Positions 25,801 through 57,983 of a stretch of DNA of 64,000 nt are shown here, piece after piece. The stretch is from positions 5,435-69,434 of the forward strand of contig CAYYXE010000001.1 of NCBI GenBank assembly GCA_964475655.1, given 5' to 3'. Source of the stretch: an uncultured Candidatus Saccharibacteria bacterium (GTDB lineage: Bacteria > Patescibacteriota > Minisyncoccia > Phycocordibacterales > UBA9973). Position numbers and translations under genes: made by a program. Position 1 is the stretch's first letter; every line of letters starts with the position of its first letter. The notes beneath the pieces were generated by a model, which saw only the letters and a list, made by a program, of their open reading frames with translations, made no database searches and had not been told where the DNA came from.

Positions 25801-25830
25801 ATCCCCCGTTTTGGACGGAGGATTTTTTTA
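25801..25830 (+). terminator. rho-independent terminator (TCCCCCGT...ACGGAGGA + T7)
   Basis: 8-bp stem (1 mismatch) + TTTTTTT; overlaps aspS stop on the other strand. Confidence 0.65.
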
Positions 25831-27264
25831 TTTCTTCTCTACTTTTTTGAGCACGATGTTGAGCTCGTCGAGTTGTTTTTGGGAGACTTCGCTTGGTGCG
25901 TGCATCATAGGGTCCTTCCCTTCTCCAGTTTTCGGGAATGCCATGACTTCGCGGATGTTGGGTTCGTCAAGGAGAAGCATCATGAGGCGGTCAAATCCCC
26001 ATGCGATGCCTCCGTGTGGAGGGGTGCCGGTCTTAAACGCCGTGAGCATGTGAGAGAAGTTTGCCTCAATGTCTTCCATACTATGACCGAGGATTTCAAA
26101 TACCTTTGCGAGTGCGTCATAGGTGTGATTGCGGATTGATCCCCCGCCGATCTCGTAGCCGTTGAGCACGATGTCGTACTGAGTCGTGAGGATAGATCCG
26201 ATATCTTTTTTGTTCATGAGGTTGTCCATATGCTCAGGGATGGGGCGAGAAAACGGGTTGTGTGTGTAGGTCCATGAACCAGTTGCATCAGGATTGTCAG
26301 ACTTACTGGTCTCTTCAAAAAATGGGAAATCTACTACCCAACAAAATGCGAGCGTGTTGGGATCGTTTTTGTCTTGACGAATGTCTGGTCGGTCAGTACC
26401 GTACTTGCTCATGGCATCGGCATATGAAATGCGTGGGAATGGGATTTGCTGGATCTTCTTTTCTGGGAAAAACTTCTGCACGATGTCGATCAGGAGCTTT
26501 TCGTTGACGTTCATCACATCATCACGGTCGACAAAGGAGAGTTCCATATCGAGCTGGGTGAACTCTGGCTGGCGATCACCGCGTCCGTCTTCGTCGCGCA
26601 TGCACTTGGCAAATTGGAAGTATCGTTCCACACCTGCGCTCATCAGGAGCTGCTTGTACTGCTGCGGAGACTGCGGGAGTGCATAAAACGTGCCTGGGTA
26701 GAGACGTGCAGGGACGATGTAGTCACGCGCACCTTCCGGAGTAGACTTGGTAAGGATGGGCGTTTCTACTTCGATAAATTTCTCTGCATGGAGTGCATTG
26801 CGCAAATGCTGTACTACGGTGTCGCGCATGCGCATGTTGCGTTGCATGCGAGCACTTCTGAGGTCAAGGTAGCGGTGTGCAAGGCGTACTTCTTCGCTCA
26901 CTTCTCGTGTGTCGACGTTGATCTCAAATGGAAGCGGCTCGGCGTAGTTGAGGATTTCGATACCAGTCACTTCAAGCTCGATGTCGCCGTTTTGTTTGTC
27001 AGCTTGCACATTGCGTTCGGGGCGCTTGTTCACGATGCCTTCTACTCGCACTACGGTCTCAGGACGCGCAGTCTTGGCTATCTCGATCACCTCAGGACGA
27101 TTGGGCAGCACGACGCCTTGAATGTAGCCAGTCATATCTCGGAAGTCAAAAAAGACCATTTTGCCCTGGTCGCGGCGGACGTCGATCCATCCTTTGATCA
27201 CTACTGTCTCCCCTGCTTTCGCTCCCAAATCGCTAATATATGTGCGCTCCATAGTGCTTTCCAT
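25828..27264 (-). CDS. aspS: aspartate--tRNA ligase, compact bacterial-type (no GAD insertion domain evident)
   Basis: Class II motifs FYALPQSPQQYKQLLM, FRDEDGRGDRQPEFTQLDME, GGIAWGFDRL; start at MESTMERTY (ORF upstream extension looks non-coding). Confidence 0.85.
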   Translation of the reverse strand: MESTMERTYISDLGAKAGETVVIKGWIDVRRDQGKMVFFDFRDMTGYIQGVVLPNRPEVIEIAKTARPETVVRVEGIVNKRPERNVQADKQNGDIELEVTGIEILNYAEPLPFEINVDTREVSEEVRLAHRYLDLRSARMQRNMRMRDTVVQHLRNALHAEKFIEVETPILTKSTPEGARDYIVPARLYPGTFYALPQSPQQYKQLLMSAGVERYFQFAKCMRDEDGRGDRQPEFTQLDMELSFVDRDDVMNVNEKLLIDIVQKFFPEKKIQQIPFPRISYADAMSKYGTDRPDIRQDKNDPNTLAFCWVVDFPFFEETSKSDNPDATGSWTYTHNPFSRPIPEHMDNLMNKKDIGSILTTQYDIVLNGYEIGGGSIRNHTYDALAKVFEILGHSMEDIEANFSHMLTAFKTGTPPHGGIAWGFDRLMMLLLDEPNIREVMAFPKTGEGKDPMMHAPSEVSQKQLDELNIVLKKVEKK

Positions 27265-27299
27265 AGTTTTTGCATTGTGCCATAAAATGAGGAATAAAA

Positions 27300-27327
27300 A
27301 AAGCCCCGCGGGATATCGGGGCCTAAC
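27300..27327 (-). terminator. hairpin GCCCCG...CGGGGC + U7 on minus strand, 35 nt upstream of aspS start
   Basis: 6-bp GC stem followed (minus strand) by TTTTTTT. Confidence 0.55.
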
Positions 27328-27356
27328 TACTGATGAATCAGTGGTTTGTAATGTTT

Positions 27357-27599
27357 TTACGCAATTTCTATTCGCCAAAATACCAAAATGCTTTTTACAA
27401 TAGCAATAAATTGTTTTGATGCACATTCTCTTTTTTCTTTGAAATGTGCAAAGTAAGATTCTTTTGCTATCGAAAGATTAGTTATATTTTTGGGGATCGA
27501 AACGTGCTCTCCTTCTGTTTGTGCTTTTTGGAGATCACGTATGGGGACACCGGTGGCGAGGTTGATGTCAGAGAGATTAAGATTTTGGAGTATGTTCAT
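27357..27599 (-). CDS. candidate small protein (80 aa) downstream of M16 peptidase; coding status uncertain
   Basis: ORF MNILQNLNLSDINLATGVPIRDLQKAQTE... bounded by two terminator hairpins; no obvious SD. Confidence 0.25.
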   Translation of the reverse strand: MNILQNLNLSDINLATGVPIRDLQKAQTEGEHVSIPKNITNLSIAKESYFAHFKEKRECASKQFIAIVKSILVFWRIEIA

Positions 27600-31411: not shown

Positions 31412-32380
31412 TTATTCTGTAAGCCCTACCACCTCATACACATCCGTCAGCTTCTTCATTGCGATCTCATTCGCCTTCATCGCGCCCTGAAGCAGTATTT
31501 CTTGTACAAGCTTGGGATCATCTTCATACTTTTTGCGGCGTTCGCGCATGGGGGTGACGAAGGAGATGATGTCCGCTATGAGCATCTTTTTGGCATCGCC
31601 ATAGCCGAGGCCTTGTCGATACTGCGATTTGAGTTCGTCAGATGAGTTGAAGAGTTTGTGGATCTGGTAGAGCACCATGTCGTCGGGGTTCTTTTCTTCA
31701 TCTTTGCCTCGAGAGTCAGTCGGGATACTCATGACAGCCTTTGTGATTTCCTCGTCAGTACCAAAGAGTGGAATCGTGTTGCTGTAACTTTTGCTCATCT
31801 TTTGTCCATCGGTACCGGGGACTGTCGCAACTTCTTCCATAATGAGTTCGTTTGGAAGTTTGAAAAGCTCAGCGTATTGGAAGTTGAACTTCCCTGCGAT
31901 GTCGCGCGTGTATTCGATGTGCTGCTTTTGGTCTTTGCCGACCGGTACGACGTCTGCATCGTAGAGCAAAATATCGGCAGACATGAGCACTGGGTAGTTG
32001 AAGAGTCCCATGCCTGGCTCGATGTCTTTGGCGACAGCGTCTTTGTAGGCATGCGCTCGCATCATAAATGGTACCGTGACGAGCGTATCAAATATCCAGG
32101 TGAGCTGCGTGTGTGCAGGCACGGCGGATTGCTTAAACAATGTCACCTTGGCAAGATCAAGGCCGATGCCGAGATAGTCGAGGACGAGATCATACGAGAG
32201 CTTCTTCATTTCCTCGGCGTCTTGGATGGTATTGAGCGCATGGAGATCTGCAAGAAAGATAAATGTTTCGTATTCATCCTGGAGATCGACAAATTGCTTC
32301 ATTGCGCCAAAGTAATTGCCGATATGCGGACGACCGGTTGGTTTGACACCTGAAACAAGGCGCTTTTTTGTGGAAGACAT
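31412..32380 (-). CDS. trpS: tryptophan--tRNA ligase
   Basis: HIGH-like PTGRPHIGNY and KMSKS motifs. Confidence 0.9.
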   Translation of the reverse strand: MSSTKKRLVSGVKPTGRPHIGNYFGAMKQFVDLQDEYETFIFLADLHALNTIQDAEEMKKLSYDLVLDYLGIGLDLAKVTLFKQSAVPAHTQLTWIFDTLVTVPFMMRAHAYKDAVAKDIEPGMGLFNYPVLMSADILLYDADVVPVGKDQKQHIEYTRDIAGKFNFQYAELFKLPNELIMEEVATVPGTDGQKMSKSYSNTIPLFGTDEEITKAVMSIPTDSRGKDEEKNPDDMVLYQIHKLFNSSDELKSQYRQGLGYGDAKKMLIADIISFVTPMRERRKKYEDDPKLVQEILLQGAMKANEIAMKKLTDVYEVVGLTE

Positions 32381-35859: not shown

Positions 35860-37248
35860 ATGTCTCTCAAGCTCTACAACACCAAATCTCGCAGTATTGA
35901 GGAATTCGTCCCGCTCAATGGCAACACCGTCACCATGTATGCCTGTGGTCCGACCGTCTACGACTACACGCACATCGGCCATATGCGCAAATACATTGGA
36001 GATGATATCTTGCGCCGTACACTGACTCTGCTCGGATATGAGGTGAAGCATGTGATGAATATCACTGATGTAGGGCACCTTTCAGATGATGCAGATAACG
36101 GAGATGACAAGCTCGACAAAAAGGCGCGCGCAGAAGGCAAGACTGTCTGGGATATTGCGGCGTTTTATACTGACTACTTCCATACGACGATGCGTGAAGT
36201 AAACGTGCTTTCCCCGACTATTGAATCGAAGGCTACCGAACACGTAGAGCAGATGAAATCGCTTGTGGAGAAGCTGCTCGAAAAGGGCTTCGCGTATGAG
36301 ACCCCACATGCAATCTACTTTGATGTCTCCAAGGACCCACACTACGGTGTGCTCTCAGGACAAAAGATTGCGGAGAAAGAAGTAGCGGTGCGTGACGATG
36401 TAGTAGTAGATCCTGACAAAAAGCACCCAGCAGACTTCTCTCTGTGGTTTAAGCGGGTTGGGCACTTTGCAGATCATGCAATGCATTGGCCAAATCCCAA
36501 AGGAGTAGAACAAGGTGACGGATTTCCTGGATGGCATATCGAGTGCTCGGCGATGGCGATGCACTATCTCGGTGAGACGATCGACATCCATACGGGCGGT
36601 ATCGACCATATCCCTGTGCACCACGAAAACGAAATTGCACAGAGTGAATGCGCGACAGGGCACGACTTTGTGAAGTACTGGGTACACCACGACTTCCTTA
36701 CGGTAGATGGTGTAAAGATGTCCAAAAGTCTCGGAAACTTCTACAACATCGATGACATCATCGCGCGAGGTATCAATCCGCTCGCCACTCGCCTCCTCTT
36801 CATGCAGACAAGCTATCGCAAGCCACTCAATTTCTCTTGGGAAGCACTTGAGACTTCAAACATGCAGCTCAAAAAGCTCTATAAATTTGCATCGCACCAA
36901 AATGATATTGGCGGTATAAGCTCCATGCACAAGGAGCAATTTATTGAGGCACTGAGTGATGATCTTAATACGGCACGCGCTATTGCTGTCGTATGGGATA
37001 CAGTCAATTCTTTTGCACTTCCTGACGAGGTTAAGTGGGCAACACTCCTCTATTTCGACCAAATACTCGGTCTCAAACTCGACACCGTGCCAAAGTTTGC
37101 TATTACCGATGAAGCAAAAAGTCTTGTGCAAAAGCGTGATGAAGCCAAAGCCTCCAAAGATTTTGCGACTTCAGATCAGATCCGCAATGAACTTATTGCA
37201 CTTGGATACGACGTGCTTGATACCGCAGAAGGTACGAGGCTTCAGTAA
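35860..37248 (+). CDS. cysS: cysteine--tRNA ligase
   Basis: HIGH (HIGHMRKY), KMSKS, zinc-binding Cys residues. Confidence 0.9.
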   Translation: MSLKLYNTKSRSIEEFVPLNGNTVTMYACGPTVYDYTHIGHMRKYIGDDILRRTLTLLGYEVKHVMNITDVGHLSDDADNGDDKLDKKARAEGKTVWDIAAFYTDYFHTTMREVNVLSPTIESKATEHVEQMKSLVEKLLEKGFAYETPHAIYFDVSKDPHYGVLSGQKIAEKEVAVRDDVVVDPDKKHPADFSLWFKRVGHFADHAMHWPNPKGVEQGDGFPGWHIECSAMAMHYLGETIDIHTGGIDHIPVHHENEIAQSECATGHDFVKYWVHHDFLTVDGVKMSKSLGNFYNIDDIIARGINPLATRLLFMQTSYRKPLNFSWEALETSNMQLKKLYKFASHQNDIGGISSMHKEQFIEALSDDLNTARAIAVVWDTVNSFALPDEVKWATLLYFDQILGLKLDTVPKFAITDEAKSLVQKRDEAKASKDFATSDQIRNELIALGYDVLDTAEGTRLQ

Positions 37249-37279: not shown

Positions 37280-37693
37280 GTGAAAACACTAACTCCTCGA
37301 GAGCAGTTCATGATGTTCTCAAATCTCTTTCTCATACTTCCTGTTATATCTGCCGCACAGTATCATGAGTGGTTATACTGTTTCTTTGCGAGTGGATTAT
37401 TTATATTCTCGCCACTTTTTCACTGGTATAGAATCAGTGATACTTCATCAATATATTTTCGTGTATTCAAAAAAGCTGATTGGATATTTGCGATTGGCGC
37501 ATTTCTGTATATGTACTATTACATCTATGCCTTTATTTCTGGAAGACAACAACTCGCTTTATTTATACTTCTCACGCTTGTTGTATGGTTCTTCTGGTAT
37601 GGATGGAGACGTGGTGAATATGACACATGGCACCCATGGTTTCATATCGTTGCCCCGATTGTATCATCAGTTATTCTTATCGTTGCGAATTAG
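37280..37693 (+). CDS. hypothetical membrane protein (AT-rich, Trp/Tyr/Phe-rich)
   Basis: 137 aa, 4 TM. Confidence 0.45.
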   Translation: MKTLTPREQFMMFSNLFLILPVISAAQYHEWLYCFFASGLFIFSPLFHWYRISDTSSIYFRVFKKADWIFAIGAFLYMYYYIYAFISGRQQLALFILLTLVVWFFWYGWRRGEYDTWHPWFHIVAPIVSSVILIVAN

Positions 37694-37706: not shown

Positions 37707-39407
37707 CTAACTCGCCATTGCCGGAAGCCTGACCGTAAATGTCGCTCCTTTGCCTAACCCCTCACTCTCGATCGTGATGTCGCCCTTGTGGGCTATCGCA
37801 ATCTGCTTTGCGAGGTAGAGCCCGAGACCGCTTCCGCCCGTGTTTACCTTGCCTCCCTCGCCGCGTGAGAACTTCTCAAAGAGCTTGTCCTTGGTCTCTG
37901 GCGAGATGCCCATGCCGGTGTCTTTCACGGCAAATACGATCTGCTCTTTGCCGATGCGTGAGAGCGAGATCGCGACGGTGCCGCCTTCGGGTGTGTACTT
38001 GATGCTGTTGTCGACGAGATTGAGGAAGACTTGCTTGAGCTTGGTCGGGTCGGCAGTTGCCGCAAAGTCGTCACCATGCGCTACAGAGAGCGTGAGGTTG
38101 ATCTGTTTGCTTTGTGCCGGGATCTGCATTTCGCCATAGAGCGTCTGGACGATGTCGGCTACTTTGGTCGGCATAAATTCGTACTTCATGCCGCCCTGCT
38201 CGATTTTGGAGACATTGAGGAGGTCTTCGACGATGTTTGAGAGCCCTTGTGCAGAGGTGTAGATGCGCTGGATCGGCTCGGTGGTCTTGACCGCAAGCTT
38301 GCCAAACGAGCCTTCGATCAGCATCGATGCATACCCCTTGATCGCCGTGAGCGGACTGCGCAGCTGGTGGGATGCGAGCGAGAGGAATTCTGTCTTGAGC
38401 TTGTCGAGACTCTTGAGCTTGGTGTTTGCAACCTCCAGATCGAGATTGGTTTGTTCGAGGCGCATGCTGAGCTTTTGGAGATTTTCTTTTTGCTGGACTT
38501 CTATACGCACTGATCGTACAAGGAAATATCCACTGATCACAAAGAAGATGAGTGTCACCGAACTCAACACGAGGTCAGTTGTATTTGCATTATAAAAGAA
38601 TCGTGCACCGATCAAGATCGTGATCAGCAGTACGAGTGCCTGCGTTCCAAACAATTTGATGTTGAATGTACGAAACTTCACCATGAGATATCCAAGCAAG
38701 ATAAAGAATGCGAGCATGCCGACAGGTCCCCATAGGTTGAATTCGTATACTCCAGTGAGCTCTCCATAAAAGTTGGAAAGGAAGAATGTGGCGAGGAGTG
38801 CTACTATACCCATAGCAAAAAGCTTGATCTGTTTGCGGTACATAAACGAAGTTTCCTTGTGATATGCGTGTACCCCCAACATCCCAATGAGTACGATGCT
38901 CGCCGCCTCGAGTCCATAAATGATATTCCACAAGGGCCCGACTACGCCTTCACAGTTGACGACATCATATGCCGCGACATTTACCGTACTCGGTATAAGG
39001 CATGCGGTTAGCGTCCATATACCCACTACGATATATTGCCCGGCTCGCGTGAGATTTCTTTTGTATACAAAAACATACGCCAGACAAAATGCGCTCAAAA
39101 ACAGTCCGACTTCAAAGAGTGCGGTAAGCTGCCACGCAAACATAAGCACGCTGTGATATGAAGCAACCCACTGCACAAGTATGTTGATCACCCACAAGAA
39201 AAAGAACCCTGTCATCGCAAGGAGCATGCGGGACTTGAGGGAGTGATTGTCCTTTTTGTACACGAGCAGTCCAATGATGAGCGAAATGAGGGCGATCGGA
39301 ATGTATGAATAAAAGAGAAGCTTCGGAGCAGTCGAAAAGTCAAACAATCCCAATACCTGAGGTATTTCGGTGCCACACAAGGCTTGGTTGTACTGTGAAA
39401 ATAGCAT
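37707..39407 (-). CDS. sensor histidine kinase with large polytopic N-terminal membrane domain (orphan; no response regulator adjacent)
   Basis: H-box LSLASHQLRSPLTAIKGY; HATPase N/G1/G2 boxes (VDNSIKYT, DTGMGI, GGSGLGL). Confidence 0.8.
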   Translation of the reverse strand: MLFSQYNQALCGTEIPQVLGLFDFSTAPKLLFYSYIPIALISLIIGLLVYKKDNHSLKSRMLLAMTGFFFLWVINILVQWVASYHSVLMFAWQLTALFEVGLFLSAFCLAYVFVYKRNLTRAGQYIVVGIWTLTACLIPSTVNVAAYDVVNCEGVVGPLWNIIYGLEAASIVLIGMLGVHAYHKETSFMYRKQIKLFAMGIVALLATFFLSNFYGELTGVYEFNLWGPVGMLAFFILLGYLMVKFRTFNIKLFGTQALVLLITILIGARFFYNANTTDLVLSSVTLIFFVISGYFLVRSVRIEVQQKENLQKLSMRLEQTNLDLEVANTKLKSLDKLKTEFLSLASHQLRSPLTAIKGYASMLIEGSFGKLAVKTTEPIQRIYTSAQGLSNIVEDLLNVSKIEQGGMKYEFMPTKVADIVQTLYGEMQIPAQSKQINLTLSVAHGDDFAATADPTKLKQVFLNLVDNSIKYTPEGGTVAISLSRIGKEQIVFAVKDTGMGISPETKDKLFEKFSRGEGGKVNTGGSGLGLYLAKQIAIAHKGDITIESEGLGKGATFTVRLPAMAS

Positions 39408-39408
39408 A

Positions 39409-39534
39409 TTACTCTTCTTCTACCGAAGACTCGTCAATAATAGCGAAATCTTTGTGTATCACAGTCTTGTAATACGTGAGCCCAATACTTACGACAACCA
39501 CAACAATGATAAGTGCCTTGATGATCGGCTTCAT
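39409..39534 (-). CDS. possible 41-aa single-TM peptide immediately upstream of histidine kinase
   Basis: ATG...TAA ending 1 nt before kinase ATG; MKPIIKALIIVVVVVSIGLTYYKTV...; below ORF-track size cutoff. Confidence 0.25.
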   Translation of the reverse strand: MKPIIKALIIVVVVVSIGLTYYKTVIHKDFAIIDESSVEEE

Positions 39535-39554: not shown

Positions 39555-40460
39555 CTACGGCAATGTAACCATTATTTTTTTGAGCAAAAAGTATGGGCGG
39601 TACTTTTCTTTGGCATGGCGAAGTCCTGGGATGCCCAGATCCTGTTCCCAGTTGAGAAACTTTACCCCCTTGGCGTGCATGACTTTTCCTTCTTCCCAGT
39701 TGAGGATTTCATATACACCGGGATACACCGATGTGTGTGCCTTCGAAAAGTGTGCGACTGCGTAATGTTTCGGGAGCAACTCGTATGCCGAAAATCCTGC
39801 AAGCTCGTCTCCTACATAGAGCGATACAAATACGATATGTGTGTCAGCGAGCCCAAGAAAACGCTCAAATGCCTTAAATTCATTGAGATCAAATGCATGG
39901 TTGCCATGCTTTTCGAGTGACCATTTGTGAAATACATCCAAATAATGGTCTTTATTAATCTTGCTGAGCGGTGCGACGACGACCTTGTGCTCTGGAAAGG
40001 TACTCAAATACTTGCGGAGCGCTTTGCCTTTGGGGTTTTTGCTCCACTCTCGCATAGTCATGAGGTGATCTGAAAGATATATATAATCCGCATCTGCTCT
40101 GTCGTGATGCACGATAAACGGCGAATCTTTGAATGAAAAGTATGGTGCCAATTCTTCGGGGATAAGCTTCAAGAAATTCTGTTTGAAATGTACCTTTGCA
40201 TACGAAAGAAGTTGGAAGGCAGTTGCGGATACCTTTTTGTCCCCAATGAACGAGAGGAATGGTTCGCCGGTGACATAGTCAGCAAAGAGTACGACGAGAT
40301 TGCCATTGAGCTTGCTTATCTTGACGGCGTTTTTGATATTCCATACCCAGAGACTTGTGAAGTTGAAATCCGAATACGCTGGAAATACTTTGGTAAGACG
40401 TTCAACTGCGCGTTTGTCGGGTAGTTCGAGTGATTTAAACGTAGGAAAGGTTGGGATCAT
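39555..40460 (-). CDS. putative aminoacyl-tRNA-dependent transferase, DUF2156 (MprF C-domain)/Fem-like GNAT-fold protein
   Basis: 301 aa; C-terminal GLRHAKEKYRPYFL resembles the G-L-R-x-F-K-E-K-F-x-P tail of lysyl-PG synthase C-domains; assignment from recall, not a search. Confidence 0.45.
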   Translation of the reverse strand: MIPTFPTFKSLELPDKRAVERLTKVFPAYSDFNFTSLWVWNIKNAVKISKLNGNLVVLFADYVTGEPFLSFIGDKKVSATAFQLLSYAKVHFKQNFLKLIPEELAPYFSFKDSPFIVHHDRADADYIYLSDHLMTMREWSKNPKGKALRKYLSTFPEHKVVVAPLSKINKDHYLDVFHKWSLEKHGNHAFDLNEFKAFERFLGLADTHIVFVSLYVGDELAGFSAYELLPKHYAVAHFSKAHTSVYPGVYEILNWEEGKVMHAKGVKFLNWEQDLGIPGLRHAKEKYRPYFLLKKIMVTLP

Positions 40461-40467
40461 ACACCTT

Positions 40468-41388
40468 TTATATCAAAAACAGCGCACCGGTAATCATAAT
40501 ACACAGCGAGATACCTTTATGGATTAAGGATCTCTTTGAAATGTCTTCTGTTAGTATGCGCGGGAAAAATATAGTGCATACAATGCCTAGCAAAAATACG
40601 ATAAGGGGTTGCGCGACTTCAATGACAAGTACCAACACAATTGGCACAGATAAGATAGCGTAATTTACAAGCAGGTTTCCGATAATCGTCGTAGACTCTG
40701 AAGCAATATTCACTAGGAGTATCTTTTTGCCTGATGTCCGCACCATGCTGAAAAATGCTTCTCGATACTTCTTTATCAACACAAGTACAACTATCCCTGC
40801 TATACCCAATCCCAAATGTTCCCAAAATGTTGCCGCCCAAAATCCGCTATCTCTTCCTACAAATTTAAAAAGTACTATCCATATCGCAATAAAGAGCGAT
40901 GCAAACAGCATGTACAATACTGACCTCCATTTTACGTGGTACCGGATAGATACTGCGGATTTTTCTGTACGGATAGAAAGCACAACACCACCCAATACAA
41001 CAATGGCGCCCCCGATCATTTGTATATACGTAATAGTTTCTCCTAAGAAAAAATAGCCCAGAATATAGCCGAACAATGGCAGAGTCAAAAACCACGGAAT
41101 AACACTCGATACATCATCGACGGCAAGGGCCTTGAAGTAGAACATAAGCCATACCAAGTTACAAAACCCAGCAACAAGAAGGATAAGAATGTCGCGGGCA
41201 CTGAGCGCAAAATTTTTTCCACCAACTAGATAGATAACACCTGCAGCAACCAGTGCAAAAAGACTCGAAAACAACACAAGTGCTCCAATCGAACGGCTTA
41301 CATTTTTATTTTTTTCAACCAAATAATTGTCCGTAATATTTACTAGGGAATAAAGAAATACGGCAATAAAGGTTAGGAGTATCCACAT
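40468..41388 (-). CDS. EamA/DMT-superfamily transporter (10 TM)
   Basis: Two EamA-like 5-TM repeats. Confidence 0.7.
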   Translation of the reverse strand: MWILLTFIAVFLYSLVNITDNYLVEKNKNVSRSIGALVLFSSLFALVAAGVIYLVGGKNFALSARDILILLVAGFCNLVWLMFYFKALAVDDVSSVIPWFLTLPLFGYILGYFFLGETITYIQMIGGAIVVLGGVVLSIRTEKSAVSIRYHVKWRSVLYMLFASLFIAIWIVLFKFVGRDSGFWAATFWEHLGLGIAGIVVLVLIKKYREAFFSMVRTSGKKILLVNIASESTTIIGNLLVNYAILSVPIVLVLVIEVAQPLIVFLLGIVCTIFFPRILTEDISKRSLIHKGISLCIMITGALFLI

Positions 41389-41393
41389 AGCTT

Positions 41394-42851
41394 TTACTCC
41401 CTTGGCTTAAGCAATGGGAACAGCTGCGTCTCGCGGAGGGGCTTGTCGACGAGAAATGCGAAGAGTCTTTCTCCAAAGCCAAAGCCGAACGTTGGCGGCA
41501 TACCATGCTCAAGCATGCCGACAAACTCGTCGTCTGCCATCATTGCCTCGTCATCCCCTTCCGCAATGAGCCCTTGCTGAATATCAAATCGGCGCTTTTG
41601 TTCGATAGGATCATTGAGTTCGGCATGTGCACGACCCATTTCGCTCCCTCCAATAATGACTTGAAACATGTCGGTTTTGCGTGGATCCTTTTCGCTTGTC
41701 TTTGAAAGCGGTGCAACAACGAGAGGATGGTTTATGAGAAATGCCGGCCCACTCACTTGCTTGCGGCAATATTTCCACAATGAATCAGTCATGCGCTCTT
41801 TATTCTTGCCATCGTATTTGACGCCGAGTTCGGCAAGTTTTACAGCCATATCTTCAACGGAAGCAGCGAAAATATCGATACCGGTTCGCTTTTGTATTTC
41901 ATCAGCATAATCGATCTCTACCCACTCATCCTCAAGGTTGAATGTATGACCACGCGTCGTAAACGTCGTCGTACCAGCAACTTCTTTGGCAATCGTTATG
42001 AAGAGGTTTTTTACAAGCTCTTTCCCTGTACCTAGATTCATATACGCCGCATAGCACTCCATATTGGTGAACTCTTGTACATGATCAGGACTACTTCCTT
42101 CATTGCGATACACCCGACCGATCTCAAAGGTCTTGGGAAATCCTGCAGCCATGAGACGCTTCTGCCAGAGTTCTCCGACTGAGATGCGCATGAAGACATC
42201 GAGTGCAAAGTCTTTGTGATGTGTCTTGAATGGATTTGCTTCGGCACCGCCAGTGGTGACTTCGAGCGTCGGTGTTTCGACTTCCATAAAGCCTCGCTCT
42301 TTCATAAACGTGCGCGTCACGTCCCAAAACTTCGCTTTCTTTTTAAACATGTCTTGAAGCTCAGGATCAGTCAGGATGTCGAGATATCGCTTGCGGTAGC
42401 GTTCGTCTTCGTCAGTGAGGCCGTGCCATTTCTCAGGAAGCGGCAGAAGCGACTTTGCAAGCATGTTCCAGCCAGATACAAATAGTGCTTTCTCTCCGCG
42501 CTTAGTGGTGTACGCGATGCCGGTCGCTTCGACAAAGTCGCCAACGTCAGTCGTCTCGTTCCAGAGCTCGTATGCAGCAGTGTCCATCTCATCAGACTTG
42601 AGGAAGAGCTGCATGGTGCCCGTGCCATCAAATATATCTGCAAATGCAAGTCCGCCCTGCCCGCGCTTCGACATAATACGCCCTGCGAGTACGGCCGTGT
42701 CTTTGGTGCCTTCGTAGAGCGAAAAGCGGTCGATAAACACCTCGATTGTGTCGGTGCGGTTGGTATGAGCGGGATAGGGATTGATACCTTTCTCCTCAAG
42801 TATCGCCTTCTTTTTCAGCCGTTCGTCCCGCAGTTCTGGAATGGATGCCAT
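41394..42851 (-). CDS. lysS: lysine--tRNA ligase (class II)
   Basis: OB-fold N-domain, class II motifs (FMEVETP, RNEGSSPDHVQEFTNMECY, GGSEMGRAHAEL). Confidence 0.9.
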   Translation of the reverse strand: MASIPELRDERLKKKAILEEKGINPYPAHTNRTDTIEVFIDRFSLYEGTKDTAVLAGRIMSKRGQGGLAFADIFDGTGTMQLFLKSDEMDTAAYELWNETTDVGDFVEATGIAYTTKRGEKALFVSGWNMLAKSLLPLPEKWHGLTDEDERYRKRYLDILTDPELQDMFKKKAKFWDVTRTFMKERGFMEVETPTLEVTTGGAEANPFKTHHKDFALDVFMRISVGELWQKRLMAAGFPKTFEIGRVYRNEGSSPDHVQEFTNMECYAAYMNLGTGKELVKNLFITIAKEVAGTTTFTTRGHTFNLEDEWVEIDYADEIQKRTGIDIFAASVEDMAVKLAELGVKYDGKNKERMTDSLWKYCRKQVSGPAFLINHPLVVAPLSKTSEKDPRKTDMFQVIIGGSEMGRAHAELNDPIEQKRRFDIQQGLIAEGDDEAMMADDEFVGMLEHGMPPTFGFGFGERLFAFLVDKPLRETQLFPLLKPRE

Positions 42852-42887: not shown

Positions 42888-43358
42888 TTATTCTAATTTT
42901 CTCCCAGGAATAATAGCTGCCAAAATAAGTATAATTGATGTAATACTAATATGAGATGTGTTGAATAAGCTCAAATCGTACCCATATTGTTTATGAACAA
43001 AAATACTTACTATTTTTAACAAAAGGAAAAGAATAGCAATAGATACGGCGATCCAATTTTTAGTGAAATCTCGATATCGCTTATATGTTGTGTATGAAAT
43101 TAATAACACTCCAATAATAAAGACAGGGACGAAATTATTATAAATATCTGAACCTGGATACACGAAAGACAACAAATCGCCACCAAAAAGACCTCCTAAT
43201 GACCAGAAGAAAAACGAGATCCCAATTCCATATATAATAAATTGAAATCTATTAAACGTTTTATTCTTTAAAAAACTTGATAATCCTTTTACAGTATCAA
43301 TTTGCGGTACTTGCCAACCTAAATCTGTCCCTTCTTCTTTTGGATCTTGTACAAACAT
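42888..43358 (-). CDS. hypothetical membrane protein (AT-rich)
   Basis: 156 aa, 4 TM. Confidence 0.45.
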   Translation of the reverse strand: MFVQDPKEEGTDLGWQVPQIDTVKGLSSFLKNKTFNRFQFIIYGIGISFFFWSLGGLFGGDLLSFVYPGSDIYNNFVPVFIIGVLLISYTTYKRYRDFTKNWIAVSIAILFLLLKIVSIFVHKQYGYDLSLFNTSHISITSIILILAAIIPGRKLE

Positions 43359-53839: not shown

Positions 53840-55084
53840 TTATCGTGCTTCGACGGTGATCCGCTGCTCTTTGGTAGGGAAAAAGGGCGCCCAAAAGGGG
53901 TAGAAATGGTACTCGGCAGTGTCGATCTCGGGGACTGCATTGATGATCTCTCCAAAGGCAGCTTTGCGAGTGCCGACAAGCGAGTCTCGGAGGGATGCAA
54001 GCGGCGCCTTGGTGATAATGACACCTTCTCCGCTCACGCGTACATGGATCGTGTCGGGAGTATTTTTGGCATCGGCTGGAAGTGCCGTCACGGGAGTAAC
54101 TACGAGGTCGCCAAGTGCCGGGATAGAGACGTCGGTATAGGTGTGGTCATTGAGCACATGGTTGGCAATGGCAGTCTCAAAGAGCTCGCGCGGGATGAGA
54201 TACGTCGTCATCGTACCCTTCATAGTGGCGGGAAATTTCACACTATCGCCACGGAGGTTGACCGAACCTGAGTCAATACTCGGCACCTGGAGGTCGGGAT
54301 ACGTGATGAGCGTCTCGGGGATCTGGGTGCGTGTCTCGCGCTTGAGGCGCTCGGTGAGTTGGGCCTGGAGAGTGGCAATGACATCGCCTTGCTCATCGGC
54401 ACTGACACTGTGCTTCATACCTTCTTCACCACCTGTGATCGCTCCCGCAGACTGCGCATAGAGACTTTTGCCCCACCCAGCGACAGAGAAGCTTGTACCA
54501 GTTGTGTTGTAGGTCGGGCCGACTGCGGTCGCAACTATTGCCGTTGCAGGAGAGGTGCCCGCCGTCTTTACTTTGCCTTTGAGTGTATAGCCAGGGACCG
54601 TGACCACTGCGGTGGTTTGATACTTTTTGCCATTTGCGGCAGTGAGCGTCGTCTTGGCCTTGATGGTCTGGGCCTTGGTGCTGTATTCATTAAAGAAGAC
54701 GACTTTGCCCCGGGCCGTGCTCGTGCTCTGCTCTACCTTTGAGCCATAGACTTGACGCGTCGCTTCACTGGAGACAAGCATGGTCTGAAACGTAAGCCTG
54801 CCGACACTCGCCTCCCCTTCATGCGTGAGCTCAAATTCTGCATTCTCCAGCACAAACGGTATGCGACGCTCAGTCACGACTACCTTTACACGAGCGACCT
54901 TCATCCCCAGCACATAGAGTATGACTACAAAGATAAGTGCACACCCAAGTATCAGGAGTTTGCGCCACCTGACCGGATGATGATGGCGCGTGATCACGGG
55001 ACGAGTTACTTCTTCGAGTATAGGATCTTCTGCACCCTTTTTCTTCTTTGCGTTTTCGCTTTGGATGATGTCGTAGAGTTTCAT
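53840..55084 (-). CDS. single-pass membrane protein with large extracytoplasmic domain, co-transcribed with PilM-like gene (possible PilN/PilO-like)
   Basis: 44-aa cytoplasmic N-term, one TM, Thr/Val-rich beta-looking ectodomain; ATGA overlap with upstream gene. Confidence 0.45.
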   Translation of the reverse strand: MKLYDIIQSENAKKKKGAEDPILEEVTRPVITRHHHPVRWRKLLILGCALIFVVILYVLGMKVARVKVVVTERRIPFVLENAEFELTHEGEASVGRLTFQTMLVSSEATRQVYGSKVEQSTSTARGKVVFFNEYSTKAQTIKAKTTLTAANGKKYQTTAVVTVPGYTLKGKVKTAGTSPATAIVATAVGPTYNTTGTSFSVAGWGKSLYAQSAGAITGGEEGMKHSVSADEQGDVIATLQAQLTERLKRETRTQIPETLITYPDLQVPSIDSGSVNLRGDSVKFPATMKGTMTTYLIPRELFETAIANHVLNDHTYTDVSIPALGDLVVTPVTALPADAKNTPDTIHVRVSGEGVIITKAPLASLRDSLVGTRKAAFGEIINAVPEIDTAEYHFYPFWAPFFPTKEQRITVEAR

Positions 55085-56214
55085 AGGTGTACCGTCTGCT
55101 GTGCAAATACTGCGGCGGTTGCAAGGGGGACATCGAGTGCCGTCTGGTCGGCAGTGCGCACAAGCCCGGCAAGCACTGACTCATCGAGGTACTTCACCGT
55201 CACCTCTCCGACCGTGCAGCGATGCTTGAGAAATTCATCGGTCGTGAGCACTCGCGTAAAGAGCTGCTGAAACTTGGGATCGGCAGTCACCGTACACTGG
55301 GACGGCACACAAAAGCCATAGTGGCCGCCTTCGAGGATCTCGCGAAATGCTGCGCGCCATGTACCAAGAAATGCTTCGATCGCCTTCTCTACGGGCACCA
55401 CTGCCGACGTATCGAGTTTGCCCAAGCGGTATGCTTCGAGCATGCTGTGCGCTTCGGCAGTGGTGTGCCGACCGATGCTTGCGAGGGTGCGATAGAGCTC
55501 AAACGTACCGACCGGAAATGAATGCTGATAGAGCATGATGCCACCCTTGATAAAGGCAACATCGGTGATCTCTTCGCCTACGTCGATGATGATGGACTCT
55601 GCGATGCTCGGCATGACGTCTCGCATGACGACATAGGTCGCAAAGGGACTCGTGGTAAAGCTGATGGTGCGCGTACCGTATGCGCGCTGGAGCACGTCGG
55701 TAAATCGCTCGAGCACGGGCTTGGGTGCGACGGTAACACTGAGGAAGAGCTCAAGGCTGGTGGCGTGCTTACCAAAGGGTGTGCTCGTCTCGTAGCCGTT
55801 GAGCAAGATGCTCGAGATCTGCTTTTCGACAACGACTGAATCGGGGCCAAACGACCCGCCTTCTGCCAGTATCGCCTCGACTTCACGATCGACGAGTCCG
55901 TCTACGAGCTTTGAGGTACAGGTAAATGCCTTCTCTTGCTTGTACACTATCGTGCGTGTCTGCGACACATACCAGGGAGATGCGAGGATGACTTGGATAT
56001 GAGTGGGATGGTGTGCGTCCTTTGCTTTGATCTGCTCCACAATCTGCCCGAGATGCTTCACACCTTCTTCGACAAAGCGCGACATGTTGATGTCGTCTTG
56101 GAGCGGGATGTTGGTACGCGCACTTGCAAGCATGACCGGAGCCGCATCCGTCCGCACTACATGCGCACCCGCAACAGAGCTCGAACTGATGTCATACACC
56201 GCAAGGACGTTCAT
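55081..56214 (-). CDS. actin-like (ASKHA) ATPase, PilM/FtsA-like
   Basis: N-terminal phosphate-1 like VLAVYDISSSSV; IIIDVGEEITDVAFIKGG...FPVG pattern as in PilM/FtsA. Confidence 0.45.
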   Translation of the reverse strand: MNVLAVYDISSSSVAGAHVVRTDAAPVMLASARTNIPLQDDINMSRFVEEGVKHLGQIVEQIKAKDAHHPTHIQVILASPWYVSQTRTIVYKQEKAFTCTSKLVDGLVDREVEAILAEGGSFGPDSVVVEKQISSILLNGYETSTPFGKHATSLELFLSVTVAPKPVLERFTDVLQRAYGTRTISFTTSPFATYVVMRDVMPSIAESIIIDVGEEITDVAFIKGGIMLYQHSFPVGTFELYRTLASIGRHTTAEAHSMLEAYRLGKLDTSAVVPVEKAIEAFLGTWRAAFREILEGGHYGFCVPSQCTVTADPKFQQLFTRVLTTDEFLKHRCTVGEVTVKYLDESVLAGLVRTADQTALDVPLATAAVFAQQTVHL

Positions 56215-56246: not shown

Positions 56247-57983
56247 CTACGAAAGTGTTGCCTTAATACGTCGCACGCCTGCACTTGATGCTTCTTCTTT
56301 CTGTATTTTGAACGTGCCAAGCACTCCAGTGCGCTCGACGTGTGGTCCTCCGCAAAATTCTTGGGAGAAAACTTTGTCGCTTGCGTCATGGATCATGTAC
56401 ACAGACACCATGTCAGGATATTTGGTGCCAAATTCCATTTCTGCACCCAGTGCCTTTGCCTCCTCGAGGGGCATTTCGCGACGGGTCACGGTGAGGTCTT
56501 CGCGGATCTTTTCATTTACCAAGTCTTCTACCTTTTGGAGCTCTTCACTGGTAAGCTTGCGGTCGAAGTTGAAGTCGATGCGAAGTCTCTCCTCTGTAAT
56601 ATTACTCCCCTTTTGGTGAATGTCGGGAGAGACGACTTCTTGTAAAGCCTTGAGAAGCAAGTGATGTGCAGTGTGAAGCTTCGTGGTCATCTCTGAGGTG
56701 TTGGCAAGGCCACCCTTAAACTTTTGCTCAGCACCTGCGCGAGATGCGTCTTGGTGAGCCTTCATTTGTGCGTCAAATGCTGCACGATCAATAGAAATTC
56801 CCTTTTCTTTTGCGAGTTCTTCGGTGAGTTCTATTGGGAAGCCATAGGTGGTCGCCAAAAGAAACGGGTCTGCACCTTTTTCAAATTCTTTGAGACCGGA
56901 TTCGAGTGTTTTGGAAAATTTACTTTTTTCAGCAAGAAAAATATCTACTAAATCTTGTTTATTCACTTCAGGATAGTGAGTTTGGTAGTGCCGTTGATAA
57001 AGTTCGGGAAGCGAATCAAAAGTTTCGTCTCGCAACCGTATCTTCTTTGATTGCATAACTGCACGCCTAATAATCCGACGAAGAACATACCCTTGATCCT
57101 TACTACTTGGAAACACTCCATCAGCAATCAAAAATACAGCGGTTCTGACATGATCTGCAATAATGCGCCCACTTCTTTCATTGTAATCTATTGCGCCCTG
57201 TTTTATGTCTGACAGTATAGAAGAAAACATATCCGCCTCGTACACATTGGACTTCCCTTGTACGATCATTGCGATTCTTTCCAAACCTGAACCTGTATCA
57301 ATGTTTTTTTGGGGAAGCTGTCCGACGACTTTGCCACCCTGTGAGAGATACTGCATAAATACATCGTTCCAAATCTCCACTACATCTCCTCGATCATCCG
57401 CAGCCACGTACTCCTCATGCGTCATATCACCGAGCGTGCCGGTCACATCATAAAACATCTCCGTATCGGGTCCGCACGGACCGTTGTCACCAGCGCTCCA
57501 CCAGTTGTTCTTTTTGGGAAGGAAATAAATTCTGTTTTCTGGAATATATTGCTTCCATATCTCTACCGCCTCCATATCGCGCGGTGCATCCGCATCACCT
57601 TCAAACACCGTCACATAGAGTCGTGCTGGATCAAGGCCAAGCCCTTCTTCTTTCGACGTAAGGAATTCATAGCTCCACTTGATCGCGTCGGGTTTGAAAT
57701 AATCACCAAGCGACCAGTTGCCAAGCATTTCAAAAAATGTGAGGTTTTTATTATTTCCCACTTCTTCGATATCGCCCGTGCGCACGCACTTTTGGCAACT
57801 CGCCAGACGAGTGCCTTGCGGATGCTTTTCACCCAAGAGGTATGGCACGAGCGGCTGCATACCTGCGGTATTGAAGAGTACTGAAGGATCGTTTTTGGGT
57901 ACGAGAGATGCACTGGGCAAAATAGCGTGTCCGCGTGCAGCAAAAAAGTCGAGGAAACGCTGGCGGATCTGAGAGCTTGTCAT
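56247..57983 (-). CDS. alaS: alanine--tRNA ligase, short form (catalytic + editing domains, no C-Ala domain)
   Basis: N-terminal FLDFFAARGH...LLFNTAGM class II motifs; editing-domain CGGPHV near C-terminus; 578 aa. Confidence 0.85.
   Translation of the reverse strand: MTSSQIRQRFLDFFAARGHAILPSASLVPKNDPSVLFNTAGMQPLVPYLLGEKHPQGTRLASCQKCVRTGDIEEVGNNKNLTFFEMLGNWSLGDYFKPDAIKWSYEFLTSKEEGLGLDPARLYVTVFEGDADAPRDMEAVEIWKQYIPENRIYFLPKKNNWWSAGDNGPCGPDTEMFYDVTGTLGDMTHEEYVAADDRGDVVEIWNDVFMQYLSQGGKVVGQLPQKNIDTGSGLERIAMIVQGKSNVYEADMFSSILSDIKQGAIDYNERSGRIIADHVRTAVFLIADGVFPSSKDQGYVLRRIIRRAVMQSKKIRLRDETFDSLPELYQRHYQTHYPEVNKQDLVDIFLAEKSKFSKTLESGLKEFEKGADPFLLATTYGFPIELTEELAKEKGISIDRAAFDAQMKAHQDASRAGAEQKFKGGLANTSEMTTKLHTAHHLLLKALQEVVSPDIHQKGSNITEERLRIDFNFDRKLTSEELQKVEDLVNEKIREDLTVTRREMPLEEAKALGAEMEFGTKYPDMVSVYMIHDASDKVFSQEFCGGPHVERTGVLGTFKIQKEEASSAGVRRIKATLS

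Follow-up and report, generated by a model that had tools for sequence, protein, structure and literature searches.

A soluble DUF2156 protein and its conserved EamA permease partner in a sensor-kinase locus of a Patescibacteria genome

The 64-kb stretch analyzed here (64,000 nucleotides), hereafter called the window, is part of contig CAYYXE010000001.1 (assembly GCA_964475655.1) of an uncultured bacterium labelled Candidatus Saccharibacteria, a member of the Candidate Phyla Radiation (CPR)/Patescibacteria; all positions are given in window coordinates. The subject of the analysis is a gene at 39555..40460, encoding a 301-amino acid (aa) DUF2156 (PF09924) transferase similar to BT_3689 (structure 2HQY), and the genes next to it, all residing on the minus strand and transcribed in the order lysS, EamA, DUF2156 gene, histidine kinase gene. 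The lysS gene (41394..42851) encodes a class II lysyl-tRNA synthetase (LysRS) of 485 aa, identified with Pfam and NCBIfam models, and ends 5 nucleotides (nt) ahead of the gene of a 306-aa EamA/drug-metabolite transporter (DMT) permease (40468..41388, Pfam PF00892), the conserved partner of the transferase. The DUF2156 gene follows after 7 nt; its product, characterized by Pfam and hydropathy, has no transmembrane (TM) segment and an isoelectric point (pI) of 9.2. A spacer of 147 nt separates this gene from that of a 566-aa sensor histidine kinase (37707..39407; Pfam HisKA and HATPase_c domains, TM scan), and hosts a micro-open reading frame (micro-ORF) of 41 codons, specifying a single TM helix (39409..39534), found in the sequence and called as a gene on identical contigs. 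Contigs identical to that of the window are present in several metagenomes, and the closest related loci come from metagenome-assembled genomes (MAGs) of Paceibacterota. An earlier note on this DNA, made from the letters alone, had described the same 301-aa protein at 39555..40460, two genes from lysS with the EamA gene in between. The ORF, which lies on the minus strand, and the gene arrangement are confirmed; the neighbours are on the same strand, as the note had it, but transcription runs opposite to the order given there, with lysS first.

The 301-aa protein matches the LPG_synthase_C profile (PF09924) with an E-value of 1.7e-16 and a score of 60.6 bits (cut-off 27.5), residues 29-298 corresponding to profile positions 7-297 of 298. 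The assignment to this family suspected earlier is therefore upheld by a full-length match; since the match extends to the end of the profile, with which the C-terminal GLRHAKEKYRP is aligned, these residues are the conserved tail of the family, as had also been noticed. The alternative label of Fem-like protein is not sustained, no match to PF02388 (FemAB) being detected at E<=1. Hydropathy analysis revealed no hydrophobic segment, and PF09924 is the only domain found. As many as 402 homologues were recovered, the nearest 58-65% identical across 100% of the length, and a family profile recovers 5887 cluster representatives at E<=1e-3. The best 150 of these representatives have a length of about 300 aa throughout (290-389 aa) and lack a fused second domain, and the best 120 of the 402 homologues are likewise free-standing proteins of about 300 aa. 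Rosetta-stone fusions of DUF2156 with either EamA or some aminoacyl-tRNA synthetase (aaRS) were rejected, given the size of these best 120 and best 150 members; longer family ORFs in our own gene calls are start-codon artefacts.

Among solved structures, 2HQY (BT_3689 from Bacteroides thetaiotaomicron) is the sole match of the single-sequence search (E 3e-15), and is found by the family profile at E 1e-33; no MprF, A-PGS or L-PGS chain was retrieved by the profile even at E<=10. The window protein and 2HQY are 24% identical, and the similarity is colinear over the full length. Residues invariant in 118 homologues include K9, D15, D31, W40, D125-Y126, W180, K184, E194, E227 and K240, along with the motif N270-x-E-Q-D-L-G-x-x-G-L-R281-x-x-K284, and most of them are also present in 2HQY. 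An AlphaFold2 model (AF2; pLDDT, a per-residue confidence score, of 93.8) is made up by two GNAT domains in tandem, connected by a helix with basic residues; in the 118 homologues, a basic residue (K/R) is kept at the position of K146 in 82% and at that of R149 in 79%. In fold comparisons the model scored 29.2 with 2HQY, 15.9-17.9 with L-PGS and MprF, 15.6 with the aminoacyl-tRNA-dependent peptide synthase Sbb17, 14.7-14.8 with FemX, 11.7-11.9 with FemA and ATE1, and 11.4 or lower with acetyl-CoA-dependent tandem GNATs, the identity in the structural alignments to MprF structures being 10-14%. The predicted fold thus resembles aminoacyl-tRNA transferases (MprF, FemX, Sbb17) more closely than acetyl-CoA tandem GNATs, and the protein belongs to a separate, BT_3689/2HQY-like branch of free-standing members. 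The pI of 9.2 compares with values of 5.0-5.6 for LysRS, CysRS and DnaK, and of 5.4 for 2HQY.

Homologous loci were collected by scanning one genome per species with a pattern plus tblastn, which yielded 372 loci; 80 were retrieved, and 79 were usable (single loci are cited below by L numbers). The window proteins were searched against the retrieved loci, in which all ORFs were then called and clustered. The EamA gene product matches PF00892 over two EamA stretches (E 2.1e-12), and its hydropathy profile has 9 clear TM peaks, consistent with 10 TM helices, in agreement with the earlier description of a 10-TM EamA/DMT transporter next to the transferase on the same strand. At the subfamily level only a weak match to TIGR00950 (carboxylate/amino acid/amine transporter) was found. 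An EamA gene directly adjoins the DUF2156 gene in 48 of the 79 loci, on either side, and is nearby in 57, upstream in 29 and downstream in 28, on the same strand in 53 of the 57. When only the 66 loci having at least 1.2 kb on both flanks are considered, the two genes lie at most two genes apart in 46. The link is kept in at least 9 of 14 DUF2156 clusters (50% identity), and also in high-GC contigs of Rhodocyclaceae, non-CPR bacteria, for which mis-binning of CPR DNA can be excluded. In a Bacteroidetes locus (L043) the DUF2156 gene shares a 4-nt overlap with a gene specifying a single EamA domain, and a 65%-GC locus labelled as delta-proteobacterial has a small gene, weakly EamA-like, 28 nt upstream of the DUF2156 gene. 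A functional pairing of the DUF2156 enzyme with the EamA permease is well supported by these data.

The three-gene neighbourhood singled out in the earlier note is conserved in part: the EamA link is kept, whereas the lysS link, found in 4 of 79 loci, is not. The conserved unit consists of EamA, DUF2156 and kinase genes, not of lysS, EamA and DUF2156 genes. In Bacteroides ovatus-type contigs (L084/L085, 4809..7948 therein) the orthologue of BT_3689 is part of an lrgA-lrgB-DUF2156-Acetyltransf_9 string that runs divergently from pta-ackA. Here, too, a transporter is paired with a DUF2156 protein, beside genes of acetyl-CoA/acetyl-phosphate metabolism, which lend the context an acetyl-CoA flavour. 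A locus on a 268-kb contig labelled Burkholderiales (L012, JAMPXW010000002.1) has a GC content of 35% and a typical CPR-type cassette, DUF2156-EamA-c3-kinase (c3 is described below). The contig is probably a mis-binned CPR contig, and the taxon labels of several "non-CPR" loci call for care. The small membrane proteins encoded at 42888..43358 and 37280..37693 in the window have no homologues across the 79 loci. Promoter and terminator scans gave counts not above those of shuffled sequence, and no operon boundaries were derived from them.

The lysS gene is a neighbour of the cassette, not one of its components. It encodes a complete class II LysRS that has both the OB anticodon domain and the catalytic core and scores 459 bits with NCBIfam PRK00484, just below the 468-bit cut-off. 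In the three closest relatives (L001-L003; transferase 58-63% identical), the order is lysS, AdoMet_dc-family gene, EamA, DUF2156, kinase, the second gene encoding a 130-aa pyruvoyl decarboxylase of the AdoMet_dc family (4285..4701 in L001). Judged by this order, the juxtaposition of lysS and EamA in the window, with only 5 nt at the junction (41389..41393), results from the loss of the intervening AdoMet_dc-family gene in the window lineage. Other lineages feature the order dnaK-dnaJ-x-DUF2156-EamA, without lysS. Moreover, identity to L001-L003 is 76-79% for lysS and 52-63% for the cassette genes, as expected of a housekeeping gene. The adjacency of lysS is a local rearrangement. The Lys specificity and the synthetase/transferase/exporter design proposed in the earlier note consequently lack comparative support, lysS being rarely present and separated from EamA in the closest relatives. 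What stands of the split Lys-tRNA-dependent envelope system outlined there is the DUF2156 membership and the EamA pairing, not lysS or lysine. For annotation, the lesson is that a "phosphatidylglycerol lysyltransferase domain protein" beside lysS is no evidence for lysyl-lipid synthesis.

Five aaRS genes are found within the 64 kb, namely those of a D/K/N-type class II enzyme (25828..27426), a class Ib enzyme (31412..32380), CysRS (35860..37248), LysRS (41394..42851) and AlaRS (56247..57983), so that proximity to some aaRS gene is unremarkable in this genome. The AlaRS is 578 aa long, markedly short for a bacterial enzyme of this type. Upstream of alaS are two neighbouring ORFs of 414 and 377 aa (53840..55084 and 55081..56214, both on the minus strand), with no significant Pfam match.

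The first 300 residues or so of the 566-aa kinase contain about 8-10 TM helices, and are followed by HisKA (1.4e-15) and HATPase_c (2.4e-29) domains. Of the 79 loci, 63 have a multi-TM histidine kinase, which is downstream on the same strand in 61. A tblastn search with a response regulator from related loci found no receiver domain in the 64-kb window, and a small CheY-like receiver is found near the cassette in only 4 of these; the kinase appears to be an orphan. The micro-ORF, the stop of which lies 1 nt ahead of the kinase start codon, encodes MKPIIKALIIVVVVVSIGLTYYKTVIHKDFAIIDESSVEEE, a product consisting of a single TM helix, the motif Y-Y-K-T-V-I-H-K-D-F and an acidic tail. Counterparts of 34-50 aa are found in L001, L003, L007, L019, L027 and L037, sharing the motif Y-x-K/Q-T-hydrophobic-hydrophobic-x-x-D/N/K-F, and align with the N-terminus of c3, a Cys-rich membrane protein of 130-150 aa. 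The c3 gene precedes the kinase gene in 29 other loci, in most of them with a 4-nt overlap with the kinase start. By this alignment the 41-aa micro-protein looks like a short version of the c3 N-terminus. Its layout, hydrophobic helix, short motif and acidic tail, loosely recalls that of signalling-peptide precursors.

An alternative architecture was observed in 18-24 loci (L026, L045-L046, L048, L050-L051, L054, L058-L060, L062-L068, L076-L079), where the micro-peptide or c3 gene and the long kinase gene are replaced, downstream of the DUF2156 gene, by a gene for a 276-aa multi-TM protein, c4, mostly followed by those of a 95-aa protein and of a shorter, 280-480-aa kinase. Neither c4 nor the 95-aa protein has a Pfam match. 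Homology of c4 to the TM half of the long kinase was considered and rejected (hhalign probability 0.5%).

Besides EamA and kinase genes, the commonest neighbour is an AdoMet_dc-family pyruvoyl decarboxylase gene, found at most three genes away in 24 of the 79 loci and adjacent in 18. Overlaps between genes, of 4 and 1 nt in L036 and of 4 nt in L039, point to a single operon. Homologues of AdoMet decarboxylase were shown to include ornithine decarboxylases in CPR members, and arginine-decarboxylase forms in other phyla (PMC10407285). Inside or beside the cassette were also found genes for PvlArgDC, an unrelated pyruvoyl arginine decarboxylase (3 loci), agmatinase (4 loci), a PAD_porph agmatine-deiminase-like protein (L070), MetK (4 loci), SET-domain proteins (8 loci), PrmA/PRMT-like methyltransferases (5 loci), and, within the locus in 3 loci from as many lineages, an Fmt/ArnA-like formyltransferase. 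SET or methyltransferase genes adjoin the kinase gene in the CPR loci L013, L018, L028, L047, L074 and L080. In the Rhodocyclaceae/Sulfuritalea loci L030, L031 and L035 (60-63% GC) the order is DUF2156, SET, PrmA/PRMT-like methyltransferase, EamA, the SET plus methyltransferase insertion being absent from L034; the position of these genes between DUF2156 and EamA suggests that the product may be methylated before transport. Because two analogous decarboxylase families occupy the same position, the neighbourhoods suggest a functional link of the cassette to arginine- or ornithine-derived amines, and the methyl- and formyltransferases suggest that a free amino or guanidino group may be further modified. 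In the window genome the locus exists in a minimal form.

The role that we infer for a cassette and a fold of this kind is, tentatively and with somewhat less than even probability, that of a transferase-plus-DMT unit which acylates a cationic amine-type acceptor and moves the product across the membrane, inside a sensor-kinase locus. The soluble, free-standing tandem-GNAT enzyme would act as a unit with the adjacent permease, transferring an acyl group, in the cytoplasm or at the inner face of the membrane, to an acceptor with an amino or hydroxyl group; the permease would then move the product across the membrane, or supply the substrate. Export would be in keeping with the weak match of the permease to the metabolite-exporter type TIGR00950. 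The acceptor judged most likely is a small, cationic, polyamine-type amine derived from arginine or ornithine, such as agmatine or putrescine, in which case the cassette would modify and export amines, plausibly in the service of surface-charge or polyamine homeostasis. The transferase-permease pair shares its conserved locus with the genes of a single-pass membrane peptide and a multi-TM sensor kinase. Enzymes of the DUF2156 fold such as VlmA and Sbb17 are known to act on non-lipid amine or hydroxylamine acceptors. In Pseudomonas aeruginosa, speD and speE, placed directly upstream of pmrAB, mask surface charge (PMC3572637). In this surface-spermidine locus, PA4773(speD)-PA4774(speE)-PA4775-pmrAB, an AdoMetDC-family gene is physically coupled to a two-component sensor so that negative surface charge is masked (PMC3572637). 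Relatives of the window locus likewise couple an AdoMet_dc-family gene to a kinase. The P. aeruginosa locus has neither a DUF2156 nor a DMT gene; conversely, no spermidine synthase or response regulator gene is adjacent to the cassette in the window, where the decarboxylase is absent too.

The acyl donor could be acyl-CoA, for which the chances come close to even, or aminoacyl-tRNA, a possibility given somewhat less than an even chance. Acetyl-CoA was reported to occupy the active site of 2HQY, and deletion of the Helicobacter pylori homologue HPB8_1270 lowered the acetylation of four RNase J lysines (PMC10700544). A basic inter-domain helix, as is seen in the model of the window protein, was described as the tRNA-binding element of the fold (PMC6103681). 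Several points weigh against acylation of an amine by the cassette, or against the evidence drawn on for it. Aminoacyl-tRNA is the donor for every PF09924 enzyme proven biochemically, and lipids are the acceptors of most of them; the pairing of a transferase with a membrane protein mirrors the MprF design, which leaves room for a lipid acceptor. A pI of 9.2 fits a polyanionic partner better than it does an acetyltransferase binding polycations, and mildly favours tRNA or an anionic membrane as the partner. The window is devoid of any accessory amine gene (tblastn at E<=0.01 with AdoMet_dc, SET, methyltransferase, agmatinase, PvlArgDC, formyltransferase, c3, c4, c6 and response regulator queries), and the amine link comes from relatives only, where SET and PRMT-like neighbours are unexplained by simple polyamine acetylation. 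Many of the 79 loci are phylogenetically interrelated, and those derived from MAGs may be mis-binned. In the literature searched no biochemical data were found on the BT_3689-like subfamily in CPR bacteria, nor, under DUF2156, 2HQY, BT_3689, PF09924 and MprF in CPR, any description of an EamA-DUF2156 cassette.

Other explanations of the same locus were weighed against the amine-acylation reading. The main rival, a split analogue of MprF without lysS, is rather unlikely: here the transferase would move an amino acid from aminoacyl-tRNA to the head group of a membrane lipid, either phosphatidylglycerol or a lipid scavenged from the host, the DMT protein would be the flippase, and the sensor kinase would control the remodelling of envelope charge. 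ArnE/ArnF, flipping a lipid-linked amino sugar, are a precedent for a DMT-type protein in such a role. PF09924 membership, the basic character of the protein and of its inter-domain helix, described as the tRNA-binding feature of the fold, the obligate membrane-protein partner with a membrane kinase alongside, and the formyltransferase gene inside the locus in three lineages are all compatible with it. Yet the family profile finds no MprF structure, the nearest solved relative reportedly binds acetyl-CoA, the DMT partner matches, albeit weakly, a metabolite-exporter type and carries no lipid-flippase signature, and the decarboxylase and agmatinase neighbours are left unexplained. The Bacteroides relative, moreover, is paired with LrgAB, a family carrying small carboxylates. 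In a wider form, which we also regard as rather unlikely, EamA-DUF2156 would be a widespread, unrecognised split MprF analogue exposing an aminoacylated host-scavenged lipid or a secreted cationic amine, and controlled or sensed by the micro-peptide-kinase pair. A Fem-like enzyme attaching an amino acid to lipid II or UDP-MurNAc-pentapeptide, as precursors of peptidoglycan, is extremely unlikely, as PF02388 is not matched at E<=1, MprF-type domains outscore Fem proteins in the fold comparison, and no cell-wall genes recur beside the cassette in the 79 loci.

A lysine-specific variant, a split LysX/MprF where the transferase would receive Lys-tRNA channelled from LysRS and the product would leave through EamA, as the earlier note had it, is very improbable. 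The three genes are co-directional, with gaps of 5 and 7 nt, and probably co-transcribed, and in ErdS the activity of DUF2156 is improved by a fused or nearby aaRS (PMC7334510). The comparative data run counter to it: lysS is linked in 4 of the 79 loci, an AdoMet_dc-family gene parts it from EamA in L001-L003, it is missing from the dnaK-dnaJ lineages, its conservation has a housekeeping pattern, and four further aaRS genes lie in the window. Also improbable is a protein lysine acetyltransferase dependent on acetyl-CoA, as proposed for HPB8_1270, which would operate along with the SET and PRMT-like methyltransferases while EamA would be functionally unrelated. The acetyl-CoA in 2HQY and the reduced acetylation of RNase J in the H. 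pylori mutant (PMC10700544) speak for such an activity, as do the SET (8 loci) and PrmA/PRMT-like (5 loci) genes within the locus and the Bacteroides context, with pta-ackA and a second GNAT. The H. pylori effect, however, is partial and indirect, and the identity to 2HQY is only 24%. EamA adjacency is, in addition, far commoner than adjacency to SET or methyltransferase genes, and survives changes in gene order, which argues for a function coupled to membrane transport.

Comparison with known systems places the window protein among free-standing DUF2156 proteins of about 300 aa such as BT_3689 and HPB8_1270. It differs from the former in its partner, EamA and not LrgAB, in its high pI, and in the lack of pta-ackA or a second GNAT gene nearby; the role of BT_3689 is itself putative, based on acetyl-CoA in the crystal and indirect H. 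pylori genetics. With MprF/aminoacyl-phosphatidylglycerol synthases (aaPGS) and LysX it shares the PF09924 domain, the tandem-GNAT fold, the basic inter-domain helix and the C-terminal GLRxxKxK(Y/F)xP, and, as in MprF, a transferase and an integral membrane protein go together. Unlike in MprF and LysX, neither a flippase domain nor LysRS is fused to it; the membrane partner, DMT/EamA, is unrelated to the N-terminal domain of MprF, and the low structural identity to MprF is not accompanied by any match at the level of hidden Markov models (HMMs). Fungal ErgS, Streptomyces VlmA and Sbb17/Orf11-type peptide synthases resemble it in being soluble proteins of the same fold which need no flippase domain, and show that sterols, hydroxylamines and amines can serve as acceptors. 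These enzymes, proven users of aminoacyl-tRNA, are encoded in biosynthetic clusters or alone, and no DMT partner or sensor kinase has been described for any of them.

With their tiny genomes, CPR/Patescibacteria are believed not to synthesize lipids themselves; to our knowledge, almost nothing is known of how they tailor the envelope and exchange small molecules with their hosts. A transferase-transporter-sensor cassette, kept in many CPR lineages and in several other phyla, is a concrete candidate for a function in the envelope or in metabolite exchange. The case also bears on whether the large, BT_3689-like branch of free-standing proteins uses aminoacyl-tRNA, as MprF does, or acyl-CoA, as ordinary GNATs do.

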